64,000 nucleotides of DNA from Acidimicrobiales bacterium (GTDB lineage Bacteria > Actinomycetota > Acidimicrobiia > Acidimicrobiales > RAAP-2), in assembly GCA_049517675.1 (NCBI GenBank), contig JBEKRV010000015.1, forward strand, positions 4,148-68,147, read 5' to 3'. The position numbers and the translations under genes were made by a program. Below, one piece after another: positions 18,143 to 64,000 of the stretch. Numbering within the stretch: position 1 is the stretch's first letter; every line of letters starts with the position of its first letter. Under the pieces are notes generated by a model. The model was not told the DNA's origin. It did no database searches and worked only from the letters and a program-made list of their open reading frames with translations.

Positions 18143-19188
18143 CCCCCGTGCCGCTGCCCGTGGACTCCCGCGACCTGTGGGAGTCCACGATGGGACTACC
18201 CGAGCAGGTGGCTGCGGCGGCTGATGCCGCCTCGGCCGTGGACGACCTCCCGGGTCACGACAAGGTGGAGAACGTCGTCGTCCTGGGAATGGGCGACAGC
18301 GGCATCGTGGGGGACGTCCTCACGGCAGTGGCGGCCCCCTTCATGCCGGTACCGGTCACCGTGGTGAAGGGCTATGTGCCGCCCGACTACGTGGGGACCG
18401 GCTCGTTCGTGATCGCCGTCTCCTTCTCGGGTGACACGGAGGAGACGGTCGAAGCCGCGACCGCGGCATTCGAGGCCGGCGCAGCCCTGGTCGTGGTGTC
18501 CGGCGGGGGTGAACTCGTGCGGCTCTCCGGCGAATGGGACGTGCCGCTCGTCCCCGTCCCGGTGTCGATCCCCGAAGCGAGGACCGCGCTCGGGGCCATG
18601 GCCGTCCCGCCGCTGGTGTTGCTGGAGCGGATCGGACTGTTCCCCGGCGCCCGGCAGTGGATCGACCAGGCGGTGGTCCAACTGCACCGCCGGCGGGACC
18701 AGCTCGACCGGTCCGGGAGCGTGGCCGAGGCCGTGGCCCGGAGGATCGGTCGGACCATCCCTCTCGTCCACAGCTCCCAGGACCTGGGTGCGGCAGCGGC
18801 TCTGCGCTGGAAGTGCCAGATCAACGAGAACGCCAAGGCACCCGCGTTCTGGAACGTCCACCCCGAGCTGTGCCACAACGAGGTGGCCGGCTGGGGGCAG
18901 AACGGCGATGCCACCCGCCAGCTGGTGACGCTCGTGAACCTGCGCCATGACGCCGAGCACCCCCAGGTGAGCCGGAGGTTCGACCTGGTCACCGATCTGC
19001 TCCGCGAGGTCATGGCCGACGTCGTGGAGGTCCGGGCCGCCGGCGAGGGCGATCTGGCCCAGCTCCTCGACCTCGCCCTGGTGGGAGATGTGGTGTCCCT
19101 GCTGTTGGCAGGCCACGAAGGGATCGACCCCGGTCCGGTCCCCGCGGTCGATGACATCAAGCGCGCGCTCTCCGGTGTGGACGCCTGA
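18139..19188 (+). CDS. SIS-domain bifunctional phosphoglucose/phosphomannose isomerase
   Basis: 349 aa. The GTG overlaps the trm112 stop (GTGA). It has a SIS pattern (VVVLGMGDSGIVGD, SFSGDTEET) and a C-terminal WKCQINENAKAPAFWNVHPELCHNE, and lies in manB synteny. Confidence 0.75.
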   Translation: MTPVPLPVDSRDLWESTMGLPEQVAAAADAASAVDDLPGHDKVENVVVLGMGDSGIVGDVLTAVAAPFMPVPVTVVKGYVPPDYVGTGSFVIAVSFSGDTEETVEAATAAFEAGAALVVVSGGGELVRLSGEWDVPLVPVPVSIPEARTALGAMAVPPLVLLERIGLFPGARQWIDQAVVQLHRRRDQLDRSGSVAEAVARRIGRTIPLVHSSQDLGAAAALRWKCQINENAKAPAFWNVHPELCHNEVAGWGQNGDATRQLVTLVNLRHDAEHPQVSRRFDLVTDLLREVMADVVEVRAAGEGDLAQLLDLALVGDVVSLLLAGHEGIDPGPVPAVDDIKRALSGVDA

Positions 19189-19276
19189 TCACAGGCGTCA
19201 TCCAGAGCCGGTCCCGCTCCATTGTTTCGATTCGATGACGTCCGGGTGGCAAGCCCGTGAACTCGGCGAGGGGAAG

Positions 19277-19305
19277 TTAACTTTGCGGGCGGGCGGGCGT
19301 AGACT
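19277..19305 (+). promoter_or_regulatory. Predicted promoter of the hpf-upstream RNA
   Basis: TTAACT (19277-19282), an exact 17-nt spacer, then TAGACT (19300-19305). The expected TSS at about 19311-19313 coincides with the 5' end of the long-range helix. Confidence 0.45.
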
Positions 19306-19312
19306 CCTCGTC

Positions 19313-19591
19313 GTGAGCAGCGTGCGGGTCTGTGGTTGCAAGTCGAAGCCAGTCGCAGGCAAAACGACCCACGTAAGGCAACTCATGGTTGCTGAGCATG
19401 GTGCGGCTTAGGAGTAAGCCCTGCCCGCGGCGTCCCCGGCTGTCGGGGGCGGGCGGAGAGGAGATGACGCGTGCCCCGAGGGGCCCCGCAGGGTGTCCGA
19501 CCGGTGACGGTCGCCACCGCCGGGGTCCGGCCGCAACTCTCCCTGCAGGCGAGTGTGGGGTCAAAGACCAGGTCAGCCGCACGCTGCTCGC
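19313..19591 (+). ncRNA. Structured RNA candidate (raiA-motif-like) upstream of hpf
   Basis: A 15-bp closing helix pairs 19313-19327 with 19577-19591. It has 13 perfect pairs (GAGCAGCGTGCGG/CCGCACGCTGCTC), one G-C pair, and one U-G wobble that is valid only on the + strand. Nested hairpins are at 19405-19420 (GGCUUA-GGAG-UAAGCC), 19423-19454, and 19498-19513 with a GUGA (GNRA) tetraloop. The surrounding 493-bp gap has no credible ORF. Confidence 0.5.
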
Positions 19592-19681
19592 CATGTGCCA
19601 ATTCCCATCCCTTCACCGACCGACCAGGAGGACCGGCCACCGATTGCAGTAACCGATCAACGATGCCGAGGAGGCGTAACA

Positions 19682-20044
19682 GTGGACGTGGTAATCACGA
19701 ATGGTAGGAAGATCGTGTCCGACGAGGTACGAGCCCTGACCGAGGAGAAGGTCCGTCATGTCGGCCTTCACTGTCCCGGATTGGAACGTGCCGAGGTCCA
19801 CTTCACGGAGGAGCGCAACCCGAGGATCGCCGACCGGGAGTGCTGCGAGGTGGTGATGTCCGGCCATGGGCGCACCATCCGGGCCAAGGCAGCCGGCCAG
19901 GCCCCACTGATCGCCGTCGACCTCGTGGTCGACAAGCTGGAGCACCAGATCGAGCGCACCAAGGGGCGCATCGTCGGCCGCTCACAGCCCCGTCACCGCC
20001 TGGCCCCGACGGAGACCCTCTACCGAAGGGTCCGCACCGCCTGA
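19682..20044 (+). CDS. hpf: Ribosome hibernation promoting factor / RaiA (short form)
   Basis: GTG at 19682 with GAGGAGG 8 nt upstream. The 120-aa product reads VDVVITNGRKIVSDEVRALTEEKVRHV...AEVHFTEERNPR...GRTIRAKA...PLIAVDLVVDKLEHQIERTKGR. It lies immediately upstream of secA, as in other Actinomycetota. Confidence 0.85.
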   Translation: MDVVITNGRKIVSDEVRALTEEKVRHVGLHCPGLERAEVHFTEERNPRIADRECCEVVMSGHGRTIRAKAAGQAPLIAVDLVVDKLEHQIERTKGRIVGRSQPRHRLAPTETLYRRVRTA

Positions 20045-39316: not shown

Positions 39317-39744
39317 TCGCTCGAGGAGACCGCCTTCGACATCAGGGTCAGGAGGACGTAGAGGGTCGACCGATTCCGCTCGGGCGTACCCCCCGTCGTC
39401 GATCCGTCGAGGGCAAGCATGCAGCTGTCGTCCAGCTGCCGGATGACGAAGCGTCCGTGGAACCGGCTGAAGACCCCGTCGTCACTGTGGGGCCACCAGA
39501 TGAACGGCACGGAGATCTCGGGGCCGGCCTCCGCCGTCGGTCCGAGGCGGTACCAGGGCACGGCCGTCGAGCCGTTGCCGCCACGCGTGGCCGCGCCCGG
39601 CAGCAGCGACAGCTGGAGGAAGGAGCGCAGCCAGGTGGCCGGTCGATGCTCCAGCAGGCCGACCACGGTTGCCGCCCCGGTGTCCGCCCGCTCTTCGATC
39701 CGGATGGTGTCGATGACCCTCGACCTTTCTGGCAGCTGTTGCAC
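39301..39744 (-). CDS. Hypothetical protein
   Basis: GC3 is high from about aa 50 of the track ORF onward and poor upstream, so GTG 39744 is the likely start (147 aa). I recognise no motif. The 3' end overlaps the regulator gene by 16 nt in convergent orientation. Confidence 0.5.
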   Translation of the reverse strand: MQQLPERSRVIDTIRIEERADTGAATVVGLLEHRPATWLRSFLQLSLLPGAATRGGNGSTAVPWYRLGPTAEAGPEISVPFIWWPHSDDGVFSRFHGRFVIRQLDDSCMLALDGSTTGGTPERNRSTLYVLLTLMSKAVSSSDQDDG

Positions 39745-40121
39745 CCATCCTGAGCCACGAGGTCGGGGCGGGCCAGATGTGGTTGGCCCGAATCGGTAGA
39801 TGCAGTCGCGTCCCCGGCAACCCGCCCGACGGGGTCGACCGGAGTCGCCCGCAGCCGGATCTGGCGCGTTCGGACCGTGTGGAGAGGTCACTACGCACCG
39901 GGGGACGAGACGCGAGTGCCACTGGACATTCGACGTACCTGCGTCTACACGGGCGCCACCACTCCTGTTCTACTGGGTTACATGGCAGCGAGGGGCACGA
40001 GCACGACGACGGCGACCGCGCCCGTCATCGGGGACGGTCGGTGTCGTCGCACCCGGCAGTTCACGGTCCGGACCGTCCCACGTGCCGGATCGTCGAGGAG
40101 GCCGAACCGGGAGGCCGCCCG

Positions 40122-61054: not shown

Positions 61055-61160
61055 CCGGCCGTCGTTCCGATCGCCTCCGACGGGTCGGTCGTCCCGCCCA
61101 CCCGGCGGGCCGCAGCCGGCGGGGACCTGCCGGCTCGCGCTCCCGATGGACCGTTGATGA

Positions 61161-61184
61161 CGTATCGGTGACGCCACCGATACG
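61161..61184. repeat. Perfect 24-bp palindrome
   Basis: CGTATCGGTG-ACGC-CACCGATACG in a locally lower-GC patch, 111 nt upstream of the ATG at 61295. Confidence 0.7.
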
Positions 61185-61294
61185 AGCAGGCGACCCCAGG
61201 ATGAACTCTTCGCGACACGGCGATCTGGTTACGCACGGTCGTCGGACCCGATGTTAGGAAGGGCCAGCTTCGGTCCCCCCATGGAGGTTCTTCG

Positions 61295-64000
61295 ATGTCC
61301 AGTCGTCGCTCGTCCCCATCACGACTCGTGTGCTTCCTGACCGTCGGCGCGGCCACCCTGGCCGCGGTCGGTGCGTCGATGAGCGTGGCCATCACGTCCG
61401 TCAGCACCCCGGCTGCAGCATCGCCGTTGTCCGTCGGTTCGACCACGTTCTCGGTGGGCACGCCTGCGCTGGCATCCATCACCAACGGCACCACGGCCGC
61501 CCCGTGGAACACCTCCCAGGGTGACCCGTCCTCCACGGCGTACCCGAACAGCGATCTGTTCCCGACGTACACACCCGGCGGCCCGACCACCGGGACGGGC
61601 GCCTCGACCGAGCCCAACGTCGCCGTGTACCCGTCGTCGAACAGCGGCACCGACGGGGTCGCGCCCTACCCGAGCGGAACGGTGGGGACCCCCGGCCCGC
61701 TCGACGGCTACTGCGGCACCGGCAACCAGGTGGCCGAGTCCGCCGGCACGCCGGCGCGCCAGCCTGCCGGGACCACGCTTCCCTTCGCCCCCGCCTACTT
61801 CCCCCACGTGGTGAAGAACGCCGACGGGTCGCTCACCGGCTACTTCGACTACCGACCCAAGGATGCCGACGAGGCGCTGGTGGCGGCCACCTCGACCGAC
61901 AACGGCAAGGACTGGACCTACGACGGCGAGGCCCTCGAGGAGAACCCGGGCTACTGCCCCTCTGCTGACATCAACGACGACGGCGAGGGCCACGCCAACG
62001 TCATCACCGTCGGCGGCAACGCCTACCTGTACACGCTTCCCCGGGCGGCCGGCGACATGCAGGGCGTTGGGATGATCGTGCACCAGTTCAGCCCCACCGA
62101 GTCCAGCCCTCTGGCCGGCCTCCCGGCGACCGAGAAGGTGGGGATCGACCCCGACGCCTTCGTGCCGACCGGTTCGACGACGGTCAGCGTGACCCACGGC
62201 ACGGCACAGACCATTCCGCTGACCTCGCTCGGTACTGCCGGATCGCCGGAGCAGTTGGTGGTGGGCAGCTTCGTCGACGTCACCCAGACCCCGGGCGTGC
62301 CGACGGTCGTCACCTGCACCGGCCTCGGCACCAGCTCGCTCACCGGGTGCACCACGGCATCGGGCAGCAGCGTGTCGGTGCATGCCGGCGACCTCGTCGA
62401 GCAGGTCATGGGCTTCACCACCCCGAGCTCCGATGTCGGCCTGGTGATCCCCGCCGGACCCAACACCACCAACGGTGACGGTGGGCTCGCCTCCTTCACG
62501 ATCGACTCGACGAGCGGCAACCCCGGCTTCGCCGACCCGCTGACCGGGACGACGTTCAACAACAACGCCCCCAACCGTCTCTACGTCAACGGCGCCGCCA
62601 TCTACTGCTCGCAGGCCAATGCCAACCCCACCACCCATATCGAGGACTGCACCACCGGACCCACCGGCTCCTCGATGACGCTCTCCTCGCTGGAGCCGAT
62701 CACCGGCGACCCGATCATCCCGGCGACGTCCTACAGCCCCGGCGCGGGCGACGGCATGACGAGCGGCCTGGTCGCCCCCGACGGCATCGTCGGCGTGCTG
62801 CCCAGCTACCCCAACAACGGCACGGTCCCGTCCGGTGCCACCTACGTCATGTACACCGAGAAGGAGCTCAGCTACTACGTGGCGGGCGAGACCGGAGGGA
62901 GCGGGACGTTCAACGCGACCACCGGCCAGACCATCTCCTTCACCCCCGGCACCTACATCTCGTCCGACATGCCGTCCAGCGAGCCCGTCGGCGGGTACAC
63001 GGTCCAGATGGGTGCCACGGCCCCCAGTCCCAGCACGTCGACGGCCATCATCACGGTGACCTGCACCACCCTCAACGAGACGTCGGGAAGCCTCGGCGGC
63101 TGCAAGGTGCCGAGCGCCTACAACGGGTGGACGTACGCCTCCAATTCCCTCATCGGGGCTCCGGGGGCCACGACGCTGGCCCAGTCCACGCTGTCGCTGA
63201 CCGGCGAGGGCAAGTCGAGCGACATCTCGAAGCTCAACAAGAACAACGAGGACCTCACCGTCCTGAGGGTGGCGTACACCACCAACGGCGTGACGTTCTC
63301 CTCGTCGGGACTGACCAACGGGGGCGTCATCAGCGGAGCCGGCTGCGAGACCGGCAGCTGCTCCAACGGCGGCGCCTACGACGACATCTCGAGTCCGGCG
63401 GCGACGGCCAACCCCACCGTCAACGGCCAGATCGACCTCAACGCCTACGCCGCTCCGGGCACACTCGATGCCACCGAGATGCGCTGGGTCGGTTCGGCGG
63501 GCACCATCGTCACCAACCCGAACGGAACCTACGGCCTGTTCCTCTCCGGCGCCTGGGCCGCCGACGGGGACAGCGACGCCTTCAACCAGATCTTCTACAG
63601 CGAGTCGAGCGACGGCGAGCACTGGTCCGTCCCGCAGATGGTCCTGAGCACCGACTACACGTTCGCGGCCTCGGTGGCCCAGGACCAGGCCCTGGCCCAG
63701 GGACATGACGTCCCGCTCGGAGTCAGTGCCTACTACGAAGGTCGGGCCTACGGTCCGAGCGTGGTCCAGAACAACGATGGCACGCTCACCATGATCTTCG
63801 CCGGGTACCGGCTGCCGAAGACCATCTCCGGTGCCGGGACCACGGTGGGCACCAACCCGAATGCACCGTGGACGGTCGGGGCGACCGACCCCGCGCTGTA
63901 CCGGAACATCCTGGCGGTGACGCTCACACCGTCCACCGATGCCACCTCGACCCTGACCAGTCAGACGACGGTCACGTCGAGTACGGCGAACCCGGTTGTC
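61295..64000 (+). CDS. Large secreted protein, Thr/Ser/Gly/Asn-rich with Asp-box (BNR)-like motifs (partial; continues past the window end)
   Basis: This ORF is not in the ORF track. ATG at 61295 lies 7 nt after GGAGG. I translated frame 2 by hand and found it open for all 902 codons to base 64000, with strong GC3. The signal-like N-terminus reads MSSRRSSPSRLVCFLTVGAATLAAVGASMS. Motifs STDNGKDW (61892-61915) and SSDGEHW (63605-63625) are present, along with several paired Cys. Confidence 0.85.
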   Translation, partial: MSSRRSSPSRLVCFLTVGAATLAAVGASMSVAITSVSTPAAASPLSVGSTTFSVGTPALASITNGTTAAPWNTSQGDPSSTAYPNSDLFPTYTPGGPTTGTGASTEPNVAVYPSSNSGTDGVAPYPSGTVGTPGPLDGYCGTGNQVAESAGTPARQPAGTTLPFAPAYFPHVVKNADGSLTGYFDYRPKDADEALVAATSTDNGKDWTYDGEALEENPGYCPSADINDDGEGHANVITVGGNAYLYTLPRAAGDMQGVGMIVHQFSPTESSPLAGLPATEKVGIDPDAFVPTGSTTVSVTHGTAQTIPLTSLGTAGSPEQLVVGSFVDVTQTPGVPTVVTCTGLGTSSLTGCTTASGSSVSVHAGDLVEQVMGFTTPSSDVGLVIPAGPNTTNGDGGLASFTIDSTSGNPGFADPLTGTTFNNNAPNRLYVNGAAIYCSQANANPTTHIEDCTTGPTGSSMTLSSLEPITGDPIIPATSYSPGAGDGMTSGLVAPDGIVGVLPSYPNNGTVPSGATYVMYTEKELSYYVAGETGGSGTFNATTGQTISFTPGTYISSDMPSSEPVGGYTVQMGATAPSPSTSTAIITVTCTTLNETSGSLGGCKVPSAYNGWTYASNSLIGAPGATTLAQSTLSLTGEGKSSDISKLNKNNEDLTVLRVAYTTNGVTFSSSGLTNGGVISGAGCETGSCSNGGAYDDISSPAATANPTVNGQIDLNAYAAPGTLDATEMRWVGSAGTIVTNPNGTYGLFLSGAWAADGDSDAFNQIFYSESSDGEHWSVPQMVLSTDYTFAASVAQDQALAQGHDVPLGVSAYYEGRAYGPSVVQNNDGTLTMIFAGYRLPKTISGAGTTVGTNPNAPWTVGATDPALYRNILAVTLTPSTDATSTLTSQTTVTSSTANPVV

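Follow-up and report, generated by a model that had tools for sequence, protein, structure and literature searches.

A raiA-motif (ModT) RNA gene upstream of hpf in an uncultured Acidimicrobiales bacterium, very probably self-standing and trans-acting

The raiA motif, named ModT in Clostridioides difficile, is a widespread structured RNA of bacteria whose biochemical role is unsolved in every species. Members of the family are found upstream of raiA/hpf in 66% of cases and downstream of comFC in 74%, with secA and prfB near, a neighbourhood that is to be read as a tendency only. Their distance and orientation to genes vary, and no small-molecule binding has been observed in vitro. The class Acidimicrobiia is already on record as a host of the motif, and raiA, secA, and prfB adjoin family members. 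Knock-out strains of C. acetobutylicum and C. difficile have phenotypes that were rescued in trans, and the RNA is stable and present in large amounts (PMC10861870, PMC11706538). The architecture of the RNA has been established by cryo-EM, and the names of its elements used below follow that study (PMC12968392). The multi-stem variant, which has P5 and a P6 domain with P7 and P8, accounts for 68% of raiA members.

Covariance-model analysis of the window (the whole 64-kb stretch of DNA analyzed here) demonstrated a match to the raiA motif, Rfam RF03072, at 19319-19585 of the + strand, scoring 149.1 bits (gathering score, 101.3; E value, 4e-37). The alignment spans model positions 1-209 of 209, is not truncated, and was obtained on the + strand only. 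RF03072 was the sole Rfam family above threshold in the whole window, where it occurs in one copy; neither 6S, tmRNA, and RNase P nor any other Rfam family passed the threshold across the 64 kb. A preliminary description made from the sequence alone had proposed a raiA-motif RNA at this site, and this identity was borne out by the match. The RNA upstream of hpf is therefore a further copy of an already known family. Taken between the two outer ends of P1, it occupies 19313-19591 (+ strand, ~279 nt), and it was assigned to the subtype that lacks P2 and carries P7 and P8.

The strand was assigned from the covariance model and from conserved G-U pairs, stability alone being insufficient. The + strand folded with a z-score of -4.03 and the - strand with one of -3.57, and because both strands score alike, single-sequence minimum free energy folds and z-scores were rejected as evidence. 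Conserved G-U pairs, such as 19337/19566 in 65/65 sequences, can pair on the + strand only.

The closing helix P1 is composed of a 5' strand at 19313-19337 (P1a, 19313-19327; GU bulge, 19328-19329; P1b CUG, 19330-19332; P1c UGGUU, 19333-19337) and a 3' strand at 19566-19591 (P1c, 19566-19570; GGU bulge, 19571-19573; P1b CAG, 19574-19576; P1a, 19577-19591), both on the + strand. P1a is the 15-bp helix 19313-19327/19577-19591 exactly as described earlier, with 13 consecutive Watson-Crick pairs (19315-19327/19577-19589), the pair G19313-C19591, and the wobble U19314-G19590. Its pairing covaries among relatives: two-sided changes were found in 11/18 pairs of P1a/P1b among 29 sequences and in 13/18 among 65, and the GU and GGU bulges were each invariant in 65/65. 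The outer 6 bp of P1a lie outside the Rfam model, in which this helix has 9 bp. Across the order it measures 13 bp, the outermost 2 bp being restricted to the window's own clade (65 sequences). A published remark holds that P1a length is strictly conserved, and the longer Acidimicrobiales P1a bears on that remark.

P1c is followed by a GCAA turn, a GAA(A)-like junction in the absence of P2, and by the P3 hairpin (together 19338-19368, + strand). P3a (GUCG/CGAC, 19342-45/19365-68) has an asymmetric A-rich internal loop (AA/AAAA) above it, and the apical loop (19351-57) of P3b (GCC/GGC, 19348-50/19358-60) supplies the 5' strand of pseudoknot PK1. The segment 19338-19368 fits Rfam consensus positions 20-51 without gaps, and all of its upper-case (highly conserved) positions match, as does each upper-case position on the 3' side (19555-19591). 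The pairs of P3a, P3b, and P4 (CCAC/GUGG, 19369-72/19555-58), as well as the A-rich loop, were kept in 65/65 sequences, with all P4 cells paired. Because of this invariance, the P3 helices are neither backed nor contradicted by covariation. In the P5 hairpin (19377-19393), all cells were likewise paired in the 65 sequences, and one pair was A-U in 53 of them and G-C in 12, which is a true compensatory change.

The PK-L segment (19398-19407, + strand) consists of AUG, which is a PK2 strand, a single G, and UGCGGC, which is the 3' strand of PK1. PK1 pairs 19352-57 with 19402-07, and 99.7% of its cells were paired in the 65 sequences; the pair 19353/19406 was U-G in 48, U-A in 11, and C-G in 6, one-sided changes that keep the pairing. 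In PK2, U19399-A19563 and G19400-C19562 can pair, and both are near-invariant, with one non-pairing cell in 65. The solved Nocardioides structure has C115-G231 at the place of the PK2 U-A pair (PMC12968392), and this difference, matched by the residue numbers of that paper only, would be compensatory. The other PK2 strand lies in the 8-nt P4-P1c linker GGUCAAAG (19559-66, + strand), which reads GGNCAAAG in 64/65 sequences, and P6 (CCUGC/GCAGG, 19420-24/19545-49) is invariant. Overall, P1b, P1c, P3, P4, P6, and PK2 are invariant or nearly so, and in this sample their predicted pairing is backed only by the covariance model and the published structures. A hairpin placed earlier at 19405-19420 can pair on paper but is absent from the family fold, in which the interval runs from the end of the PK1 3' strand through the single-stranded linker into P6.

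Between PK1 and P6 lies a 10-nt exposed single strand, UUAGGAGUAA (19408-19417, + strand). It agrees with the family consensus UUAGA(C/A)GUAA at 9/10 positions, position 5 being G (PMC12968392). Across 65 sequences of the order, this position was G in 40 and A in 25, and the variants UUAGGAGUAA, UUAGAGGUAA, and UUAGAAGUAA occurred in 33, 18, and 7 sequences, respectively. The Acidimicrobiales linker contains AGGAG. Binding of KhpA/KhpB at ~2 uM has been reported, and the linker has been proposed as their site (PMC12968392).

P7 (19425-19456, + strand) is a hairpin whose 4 + 9 bp flank a small internal loop, with two-sided changes in 7/13 pairs (29 sequences) and 10/13 pairs (65 sequences). A hairpin reported at 19423-19454 is essentially P7, but the register backed by covariation is 19425-19456. 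P8 (19460-19542, + strand) is long and irregular, approximately 83 nt, with the base GGAG/CUCC and a tip at 19498-19513 that bears a GUGA loop. The Rfam alignment shows 59 inserted nt here in place of the 16 of the model, and P8 is ~40 nt longer than in the model; members of the clade typically have ~80-85 nt. All four helix segments of P8 showed compensatory changes (7, 5, 4, and 3 pairs in 29 sequences), and two-sided changes were found in 9/9 P8 base pairs. The 19498-19513 hairpin of the preliminary description is thus real as the tip of P8, whereas its GNRA loop occurs in only ~10/29 close relatives, and the tip was rejected as a conserved tertiary contact for this reason. An internal loop of P8, AUGAC/AACU, replaces the E-loop AGUA/GAA of the family, with the clade consensus NGA(C/U/A) / (C/A)A(C/A)N. 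The E-loop is described as a feature that P8 'often carries'; since the literature has it as frequent and not as defining, the missing E-loop is no bar to membership.

The same RNA was found upstream of secA in 64/80 related Acidimicrobiales genomes/loci. When pattern-positive loci were tested against RF03072, 12/12 passed, with 120-163 bits. Covariation was determined on samples of 29 and 65 sequences with the published architecture imposed, under which 95.0 and 96.5% of paired cells, respectively, could pair. Two-sided pair changes numbered 37 in the 29 sequences and 33 in the 65, where shuffles gave 18.2 and 20.4, respectively, and slid controls 13-21. The helices with covariation were P1a, P5, P7, and P8, and the core nucleotides were invariant among relatives. 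RNAalifold recovered these four helices from the close relatives. Its pairing of the core (columns 18-29 with 38-50 of the close-relative alignment) was rejected; since it lacked supporting variation and clashed with the solved structures, the published architecture was used for the core. Modeled in this way, all published helices and both pseudoknots can form in 19313-19591.

The RNA shares with the raiA motif/ModT at large the P1a/b/c helix with its GU and GGU bulges, P3a/b with the A-rich loop, P4-P8, PK1, and PK2, as well as the 10-nt exposed linker and the site upstream of raiA/hpf, then secA and prfB. It differs in the linker sequence, the length and internal loop of P8, and the upstream gene. 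Compared with Ca-raiA of Clostridium acetobutylicum (204 nt, cryo-EM), it likewise lacks P2, continues from P1c into a GNAA-like junction, and has both P7 and P8. However, P7 has 4 bp in the clostridial RNA vs ~13 bp here, P8 is far longer here, the total length is ~279 nt, and the GC content here is 69%; knock-out phenotypes are on record for the clostridial RNA only. Ns-raiA of Nocardioides sp. Iso805N (253 nt, 3.0 A cryo-EM) is also from Actinomycetota, and its P7 of 14 bp is close to the ~13 bp here. Its 8-nt P4-P1c linker corresponds as well, G227, G228, C230, A232, A233, and G234 being matched to GGUCAAAG by published residue numbers. In contrast, it has P2, which is absent here, and differs at the PK2 pair noted above.

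The gene order 3' of the RNA is hpf, secA, prfB, and the 5' neighbour is a PGI/PMI SIS-domain gene in place of comFC, which is absent. The hpf gene is a short form (19682-20044, + strand, 120 aa) composed of the S30AE/YfiA domain only (PF02482, 42.2 bits against a cutoff of 23.7; TIGR00741, 38.0 bits, just below the cutoff of 40.9), and the source contig carries it as a 120-aa gene too. This neighbour, hpf (raiA), is the gene behind the name of the RNA family. Its longest open reading frame (GTG at 19553) overlaps the RNA, which calls for caution from annotators. The Shine-Dalgarno sequence GAGGAGG (19668-19674) is unpaired in the centroid fold. Among the related loci, the RNA precedes hpf in 38/64, at variable spacing, and stands directly before secA without hpf in 24 relatives; its strand is that of hpf/secA in 64/64. 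In the cultured relative Aciditerrimonas ferrireducens JCM 15389, secA follows the RNA immediately.

The spacer between P1 and the hpf start (19592-19681, + strand, 90 nt) has little structure and folds worse than shuffled sequence (z = +2.18). It contains a 21-nt Shine-Dalgarno-like island, GACCGACCAGGAGGACCGGCC (19618-19638, + strand), which is near-invariant in the 17 sequences that have it (window + 16 loci), with variable flanks. The island lies 15-62 nt from P1, and the spacer is visibly variable in length. A small open reading frame through the island (ATG 19593 to TAA 19650-52) was rejected, as a start codon is present in only 2 of the sequences and its third positions are as invariant as the others. 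An in-frame stop 10 codons past the island recurs in 12/17 island sequences. An RNA hairpin in the island (CCGAUC-AGGAG-GACCGG) found no support, as its C/T variation is uncompensated and the region folds poorly.

The promoter proposed earlier, TTAACT-17-TAGACT, was confirmed in part. Both hexamers are present, and the -10 hexamer TAGACT (19300-19305, + strand) is conserved, almost all of the 64 related loci having a TA(C/G)(A/G)(C/A)T sequence 6-8 nt before P1 pairing begins. The -35 hexamer TTAACT (19277-19282) is not conserved; among the relatives with upstream sequence, only the nearest one (L003, TTCACT) shares it. The constant distance of the -10 hexamer from P1 supports a putative start at ~19312-19313, in agreement with the ~19313 suggested before. 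A sigma-70 promoter and terminator scan of the gap called nothing. The scan is silent on TTAACT-17-TAGACT because only 8/12 consensus positions match, and since it also misses the conserved raiA -10, this negative result was given little weight for promoters.

Four direct-repeat half-sites lie further upstream (19224-19262, + strand; GTTTC 19224-28, ATGAC 19235-39, GTGGC 19246-50, and GTGAA(C) 19257-62), with exact 11-nt phasing from approximately -89 to -51 relative to the putative start. They are conserved in a 25-sequence alignment of the window and close relatives, within an otherwise variable spacer, with the consensus GTTGC/GTGAC/GTGAC/GTGAA, and are absent from more distant relatives. 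A pattern of three half-sites matched nowhere else in the window (1 match, 0.07 expected), and a regulon search with two half-sites was uninformative (14 matches vs 14.1 expected). The consensus of Streptomyces MtrA is G/T-T-G/A-A-C-C-N5-G-T-G/T-A-C-N (PMC5650626). From this resemblance, the half-sites are a candidate site for an OmpR/PhoB-type response regulator with an MtrA-like consensus, which is unneeded for the main finding. A wider proposal, that the raiA RNA is under MtrA-like (OmpR/PhoB-family) control and is co-transcribed with short-form hpf through the island-bearing unstructured spacer, is speculative and unlikely; it draws only on phylogenetic conservation and on the likeness to a published consensus.

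We give next to no credence to the alternative in which the gap is devoid of functional RNA and holds a chance inverted repeat or a decayed protein gene (for example comFC). A perfect 13-nt inverted repeat arose in 1/200 mononucleotide shuffles of the gap, in line with an earlier estimate of roughly 1 in 100. GC-rich sequence folds stably anyway, as the minus strand does here (z = -3.57). However, this alternative is refuted by the covariance-model match (E 4e-37), the compensatory changes in P1a, P5, P7, and P8, and the Pfam-negative open reading frames of the gap; the core, moreover, is near-invariant among genomes with a SecA identity of only 66-91%. Third-position GC in the gap frames was 0.62-0.70 vs 0.84-0.94 in the flanking genes, and the six open reading frames of the gap had no Pfam match at E<=0.1, consistent with the previous claim that none of them has a coding-like composition. 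Because these frames lack a Pfam match, nothing points to a decayed comFC, and this or another protein in the gap was ruled out. A GC3 signal was missing over 19134-19476 and 19509-19779, which are the two longest such stretches in the window, and this proxy also supports the description of this gap as the longest non-coding one in the window.

A cis-acting hpf leader or riboswitch that would sense a ligand or the ribosome state and control hpf transcription or translation is improbable. The RNA has the orientation of hpf at a distance of only 90 nt with no terminator found, the RNA-hpf order is kept in 38/64 loci, and the spacer contains the conserved 21-nt island. The Rfam type label of RF03072 is 'Cis-reg; riboswitch', and a highly conserved pseudoknotted fold 5' of a same-strand gene is shared with riboswitches. 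On the other hand, no terminator, anti-terminator, or Shine-Dalgarno-masking structure linking the RNA to hpf was seen, and the poorly folding spacer (z = +2.18) offers no expression platform. The hpf Shine-Dalgarno sequence is complementary to no part of the RNA, and the 15-bp GC-rich P1a clamp looks unswitchable. The features that characterize riboswitches, an expression platform and a single downstream gene class at a short conserved distance, are missing: the downstream gene is hpf or secA, 24 relatives have the RNA before secA with hpf absent, and spacer length varies. The homologues act in trans, and the literature adds that rescue works in trans, that distance and orientation vary, and that small molecules were not bound in vitro; by analogy with them, the raiA RNA would stand outside the riboswitch class by function. 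Since there is neither a terminator nor an expression platform and 24 relatives have no hpf between the RNA and secA, an hpf riboswitch is less likely than an RNA that stands by itself and acts in trans, and of the two options left by the preliminary description, local evidence and the literature favour the free-standing one. It is possible, although we doubt it, that raiA-hpf(-secA) is an obligate transcription unit in which the raiA promoter is the main hpf promoter and the RNA is cut from the 5' end. The levels of the RNA and the hibernation factor would then be transcriptionally coupled even though the RNA acts in trans. The spacer 19592-19681 is unstructured and contains no promoter-like or terminator-like site, the strand is shared in 64/64 loci, and long read-through ModT isoforms are known in C. 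difficile (PMC11706538). However, the scan that misses the conserved raiA -10 is a weak negative for high-GC actinobacterial promoters, and an extremely abundant RNA before the essential secA would demand tight attenuation. Co-transcription with hpf/secA as such is likely, because the strand is the same in 64/64 loci and no terminator intervenes, and some cis effect on hpf is possible.

Overall, 19313-19591 is very probably a raiA-motif RNA gene of an uncultured Acidimicrobiales bacterium that is self-standing and trans-acting and is no hpf riboswitch. The start, 3' end, abundance, and trans action of the Acidimicrobiales RNA are what we infer. By analogy with the clostridial homologues, the RNA would adopt by itself the compact, pyramid-like structure known from cryo-EM, its ends locked in the 15-bp P1a, would accumulate as an abundant and stable molecule, and would act in trans on the transition from growth to stationary phase, not serving as an hpf riboswitch. 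KhpA/KhpB are possibly bound at the exposed UUAGGAGUAA linker, which would form a ribonucleoprotein. The 3' end probably arises by read-through into hpf-secA followed by trimming to P1, or by factor-dependent termination. Sporulation is not known in Acidimicrobiales. As the functional evidence all comes from sporulating Clostridia, the Acidimicrobiales phenotype may differ.

These results indicate that sequence reading alone located a real RNA gene. Few bacterial structured RNAs of unsolved biochemical function are as widespread as the raiA motif/ModT, and the present copy does not solve that function. The conserved upstream repeats provide a testable regulatory input, and if the proposed MtrA-like control and co-transcription were true, they would connect an orphan RNA with a defined signalling input as well as with ribosome hibernation. 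The analysis documents the Acidimicrobiales form of the RNA, with no P2, a P1a of 13-15 bp, a long covarying P8, a non-canonical E-loop position, and the AGGAG linker. Within this one order, the RNA stays beside secA with or without hpf, which argues against hpf-specific cis control.

A scan of the whole 64-kb window against Rfam 15 at gathering thresholds demonstrated a full-length match to the raiA family (RF03072) at 19319–19585 on the + strand, with 149.1 bits against a gathering threshold of 101.3 (E value, 4.3e-37; model positions 1–209 of 209). The raiA-motif-like RNA proposed in the preliminary description was thus confirmed by the covariance-model search suggested there. RF03072 was the single Rfam family to pass its gathering threshold in the window, and a permissive scan of 19100–19800 returned, beyond raiA, one chance-level match only (E value, 0.96). 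ARAGORN predicted neither tRNA nor tmRNA genes anywhere in the window. Acidimicrobiia is already among the classes listed with raiA (PMC10861870). As a member of a known family, in a class with a prior raiA record and beside the usual neighbor genes, the RNA is considered already known, with modest lineage-specific detail.

The third-position GC content of the 493-bp gap was 0.62–0.70 in all six frames compared to 0.84–0.94 in the flanking genes, and none of its six ORFs had a Pfam match at E ≤ 0.1, in agreement with the earlier reading of the gap as non-coding. Of all stretches in the window that lack a third-position GC signal, 19134–19476 and 19509–19779 were the two longest. The next longest were 61129–61368 (240 nt) and then two within 39688–40043 (127 and 211 nt); no Rfam families or tRNAs were found in either region. 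Direct reading of the sequence demonstrated that 19313–19327 pairs with 19577–19591 through 13 consecutive Watson–Crick pairs, an outer G–C pair and a U19314–G19590 wobble, exactly as previously described. When the gap was shuffled 200 times, a 13-nt perfect inverted repeat occurred once, close to the earlier chance estimate of roughly 1 in 100.

Element names from the 2024 consensus (PMC10861870) and the 2026 cryo-EM paper (PMC12968392) were mapped onto the + strand of the window. P1a (19313–27/19577–91) is followed by a GU bulge (19328–29), P1b (19330–32/19574–76), a GGU bulge (19571–73), P1c (19333–37/19566–70), and a GCAA junction with no P2 inserted (19338–41). The remaining elements are P3a (19342–45/19365–68), P3b (19348–50/19358–60), PK1 (19352–57 with 19402–07), P4 (19369–72/19555–58), P5 (19377–93), PK2 (19399–400 with 19562–63), the linker (19408–17), P6 (19420–24/19545–49), P7 (19425–56), and P8 (19460–19542).

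Pair counts were determined for the window with 28 close relatives (29 sequences) and for 65 sequences with distal P8 left out. In the former, standard pairs occupied 95.0% of cells compared to 36–51% with slid partners, and both-side changes occurred at 37 pairs, compared with 18.2 ± 2.5 in shuffles (none of 500 reached 37) and 13–17 in slid controls. In the latter, the corresponding values were 96.5% of cells and 33 pairs, against 20.4 ± 2.0 and 14–21. Covariation was observed mostly in P1a, P7, and P8, and the closing helix proposed earlier covaries in both sets; P5 added one compensatory A–U to G–C pair, and PK1 changed from U–G to U–A and from U–G to C–G. P1b, P1c, P3, P4, P6, and PK2 were invariant or nearly so in the sampled relatives; their support comes from the solved structures and the covariance model. 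In the 65 sequences, conserved G–U pairs leave the + strand as the only workable one; folding energy did not separate the two strands. Among three inner hairpins noted earlier, 19423–19454 corresponds roughly to P7 and 19498–19513 to the tip of P8, but 19405–19420 does not belong to the family fold because its pairing would hide the conserved single-stranded linker. The GUGA tetraloop is present at the P8 tip of the window, but a GNRA loop is kept there in no more than about 10 of the 29 close relatives. Two distal P8 segments, 19486–19493 (CCG-NN-GGG, 5′ strand) and 19517–19523 (CCGCCGG, 3′ strand), were nearly invariant in the window and 28 close relatives and may represent a lineage-specific contact or protein-binding motif.

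The RNA, approximately 279 nt long compared to 204–253 nt for the cryo-EM-solved raiA RNAs (PMC12968392), departs from the consensus in several elements. P1a extends 6 bp past the Rfam model, whose 9 bp may not be the natural length elsewhere; 13 bp are kept throughout the order and 15 bp within the clade of the window, with compensatory changes, and P1a length has been remarked as highly conserved (PMC12968392). P8 has 59 nt inserted at a point where 16 are expected from the model, and its internal loop is AUGAC/AACU instead of the E-loop AGUA/GAA, which is described only as frequent in the family (PMC10861870). The linker is UUAGGAGUAA, whereas the family consensus is UUAGA(C/A)GUAA (PMC12968392). 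In this lineage, the linker has a Shine–Dalgarno-like core (AGGAG in 33 and GAGG in 18 of 65 sequences) without counterpart in that consensus. Tying this core to the translation-related neighbor genes is pure speculation, and weak, because 7 of 65 sequences have UUAGAAGUAA.

The SecA encoded downstream of the RNA is present on a 69-kb contig of JGI metagenome 3300038619. The 80 best SecA matches in the genome collection, from Acidimicrobiales or Acidimicrobiaceae MAGs (66–91% identity), were used as relatives. In 64 of 80 loci, two invariant anchors, GTCTGTGG and CCAGGTCAG, 156–264 nt apart (249 nt in the window), enclosed a raiA-like element in the same orientation as secA. All 12 tested anchor-positive loci passed the Rfam threshold (120–163 bits), and no raiA match was found in four tested anchor-negative loci. 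A short variant at L037:1448–1637, a related secA locus, has 156 nt between anchors (137 bits) and an 18-nt P2-like insertion after P1c without the P7/P8 domain, indicating that raiA subtypes switch inside one order.

The gene order was PMM, Trm112-like, PGI/PMI (SIS), raiA RNA, short hpf (120 aa), secA, prfB, ftsE, and ftsX, with no comFC or mtrAB near the RNA locus. The single-domain hpf of the window (19682–20044) scored above the Pfam S30AE threshold and just under the NCBIfam TIGR00741 cutoff (38.0 vs. 40.9 bits). In the hpf reading frame, the longest ORF begins with GTG at 19553, a position within the RNA; naive gene calling would thus stretch hpf into raiA. The RNA–hpf order was kept in 38 related loci with variable spacing, and in 24 others the RNA lay directly upstream of secA with no detectable hpf. 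In these 24 (L029, L035, L042–L077; e.g., L045:2663–3001), the RNA ends approximately 45–160 nt before the secA start, and no hpf was found elsewhere in the fetched sequence. Within Acidimicrobiales, secA adjacency is more constant than hpf adjacency.

TTAACT and TAGACT are present with the 17-nt spacer previously described, and the scan tool reports no promoter here because they agree with the consensus at only 8 of 12 positions. In nearly all 64 loci, TA(C/G)(A/G)(C/A)T precedes the first base of P1 by 6–8 nt, while other upstream sequence diverged; the −10 element is conserved, but the −35 is not. The hexamer position supports a predicted transcription start at about 19312–19313, as proposed earlier (19313). 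Further upstream, at 19224–19262, four direct-repeat half-sites (GTTTC, ATGAC, GTGGC, and GTGAAC) show exact 11-nt phasing and resemble the Streptomyces MtrA direct-repeat consensus (PMC5650626). Their clade consensus, GTTGC/GTGAC/GTGAC/GTGAA, is kept in an alignment of the window and 24 close relatives (A3); the phased half-sites were not conserved in more distant relatives, and a looser pattern was not enriched across the window. The more distant L029 carries three tandem copies of approximately 14 nt, GGTGACCGTTCTT, at about 2465–2510, approximately 80–120 nt upstream of its raiA RNA.

No terminator-like site was found by scanning downstream of the RNA, and the 90-nt spacer before hpf has a less stable predicted fold than shuffled sequence (z = +2.18). 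A 21-nt island in this spacer (19618–19638), GACCGA(C/T)CAGGAGGACCGGCC, was nearly invariant among the 17 sequences having it (window and 16 loci), lay 15–62 nt from P1, and was found only in the clade with hpf after the RNA. It contains AGGAGG, a perfect Shine–Dalgarno core that is not followed by a start codon. Comparison of the 17 sequences rejected a conserved small ORF, and these sequences and the spacer folding did not support an RNA hairpin.

Clostridial mutants with the raiA RNA deleted enter stationary phase late and show impaired sporulation and aggregation, and these defects are rescued from another locus (PMC10861870; PMC11706538). The C. difficile mutant has raised c-di-GMP (PMC11706538), and KhpA/KhpB bind raiA RNA at approximately 2 μM, probably at the exposed linker (PMC12968392). 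Co-transcription of the RNA with hpf is plausible, but a role as a riboswitch for hpf is unlikely, since an expression platform is absent and the downstream gene varies between hpf and secA. Together with the family membership, fold, strand, and conserved promoter element established here, the reported phenotypes and rescue in trans favor the interpretation that this RNA would work as a self-standing, trans-acting structured RNA.
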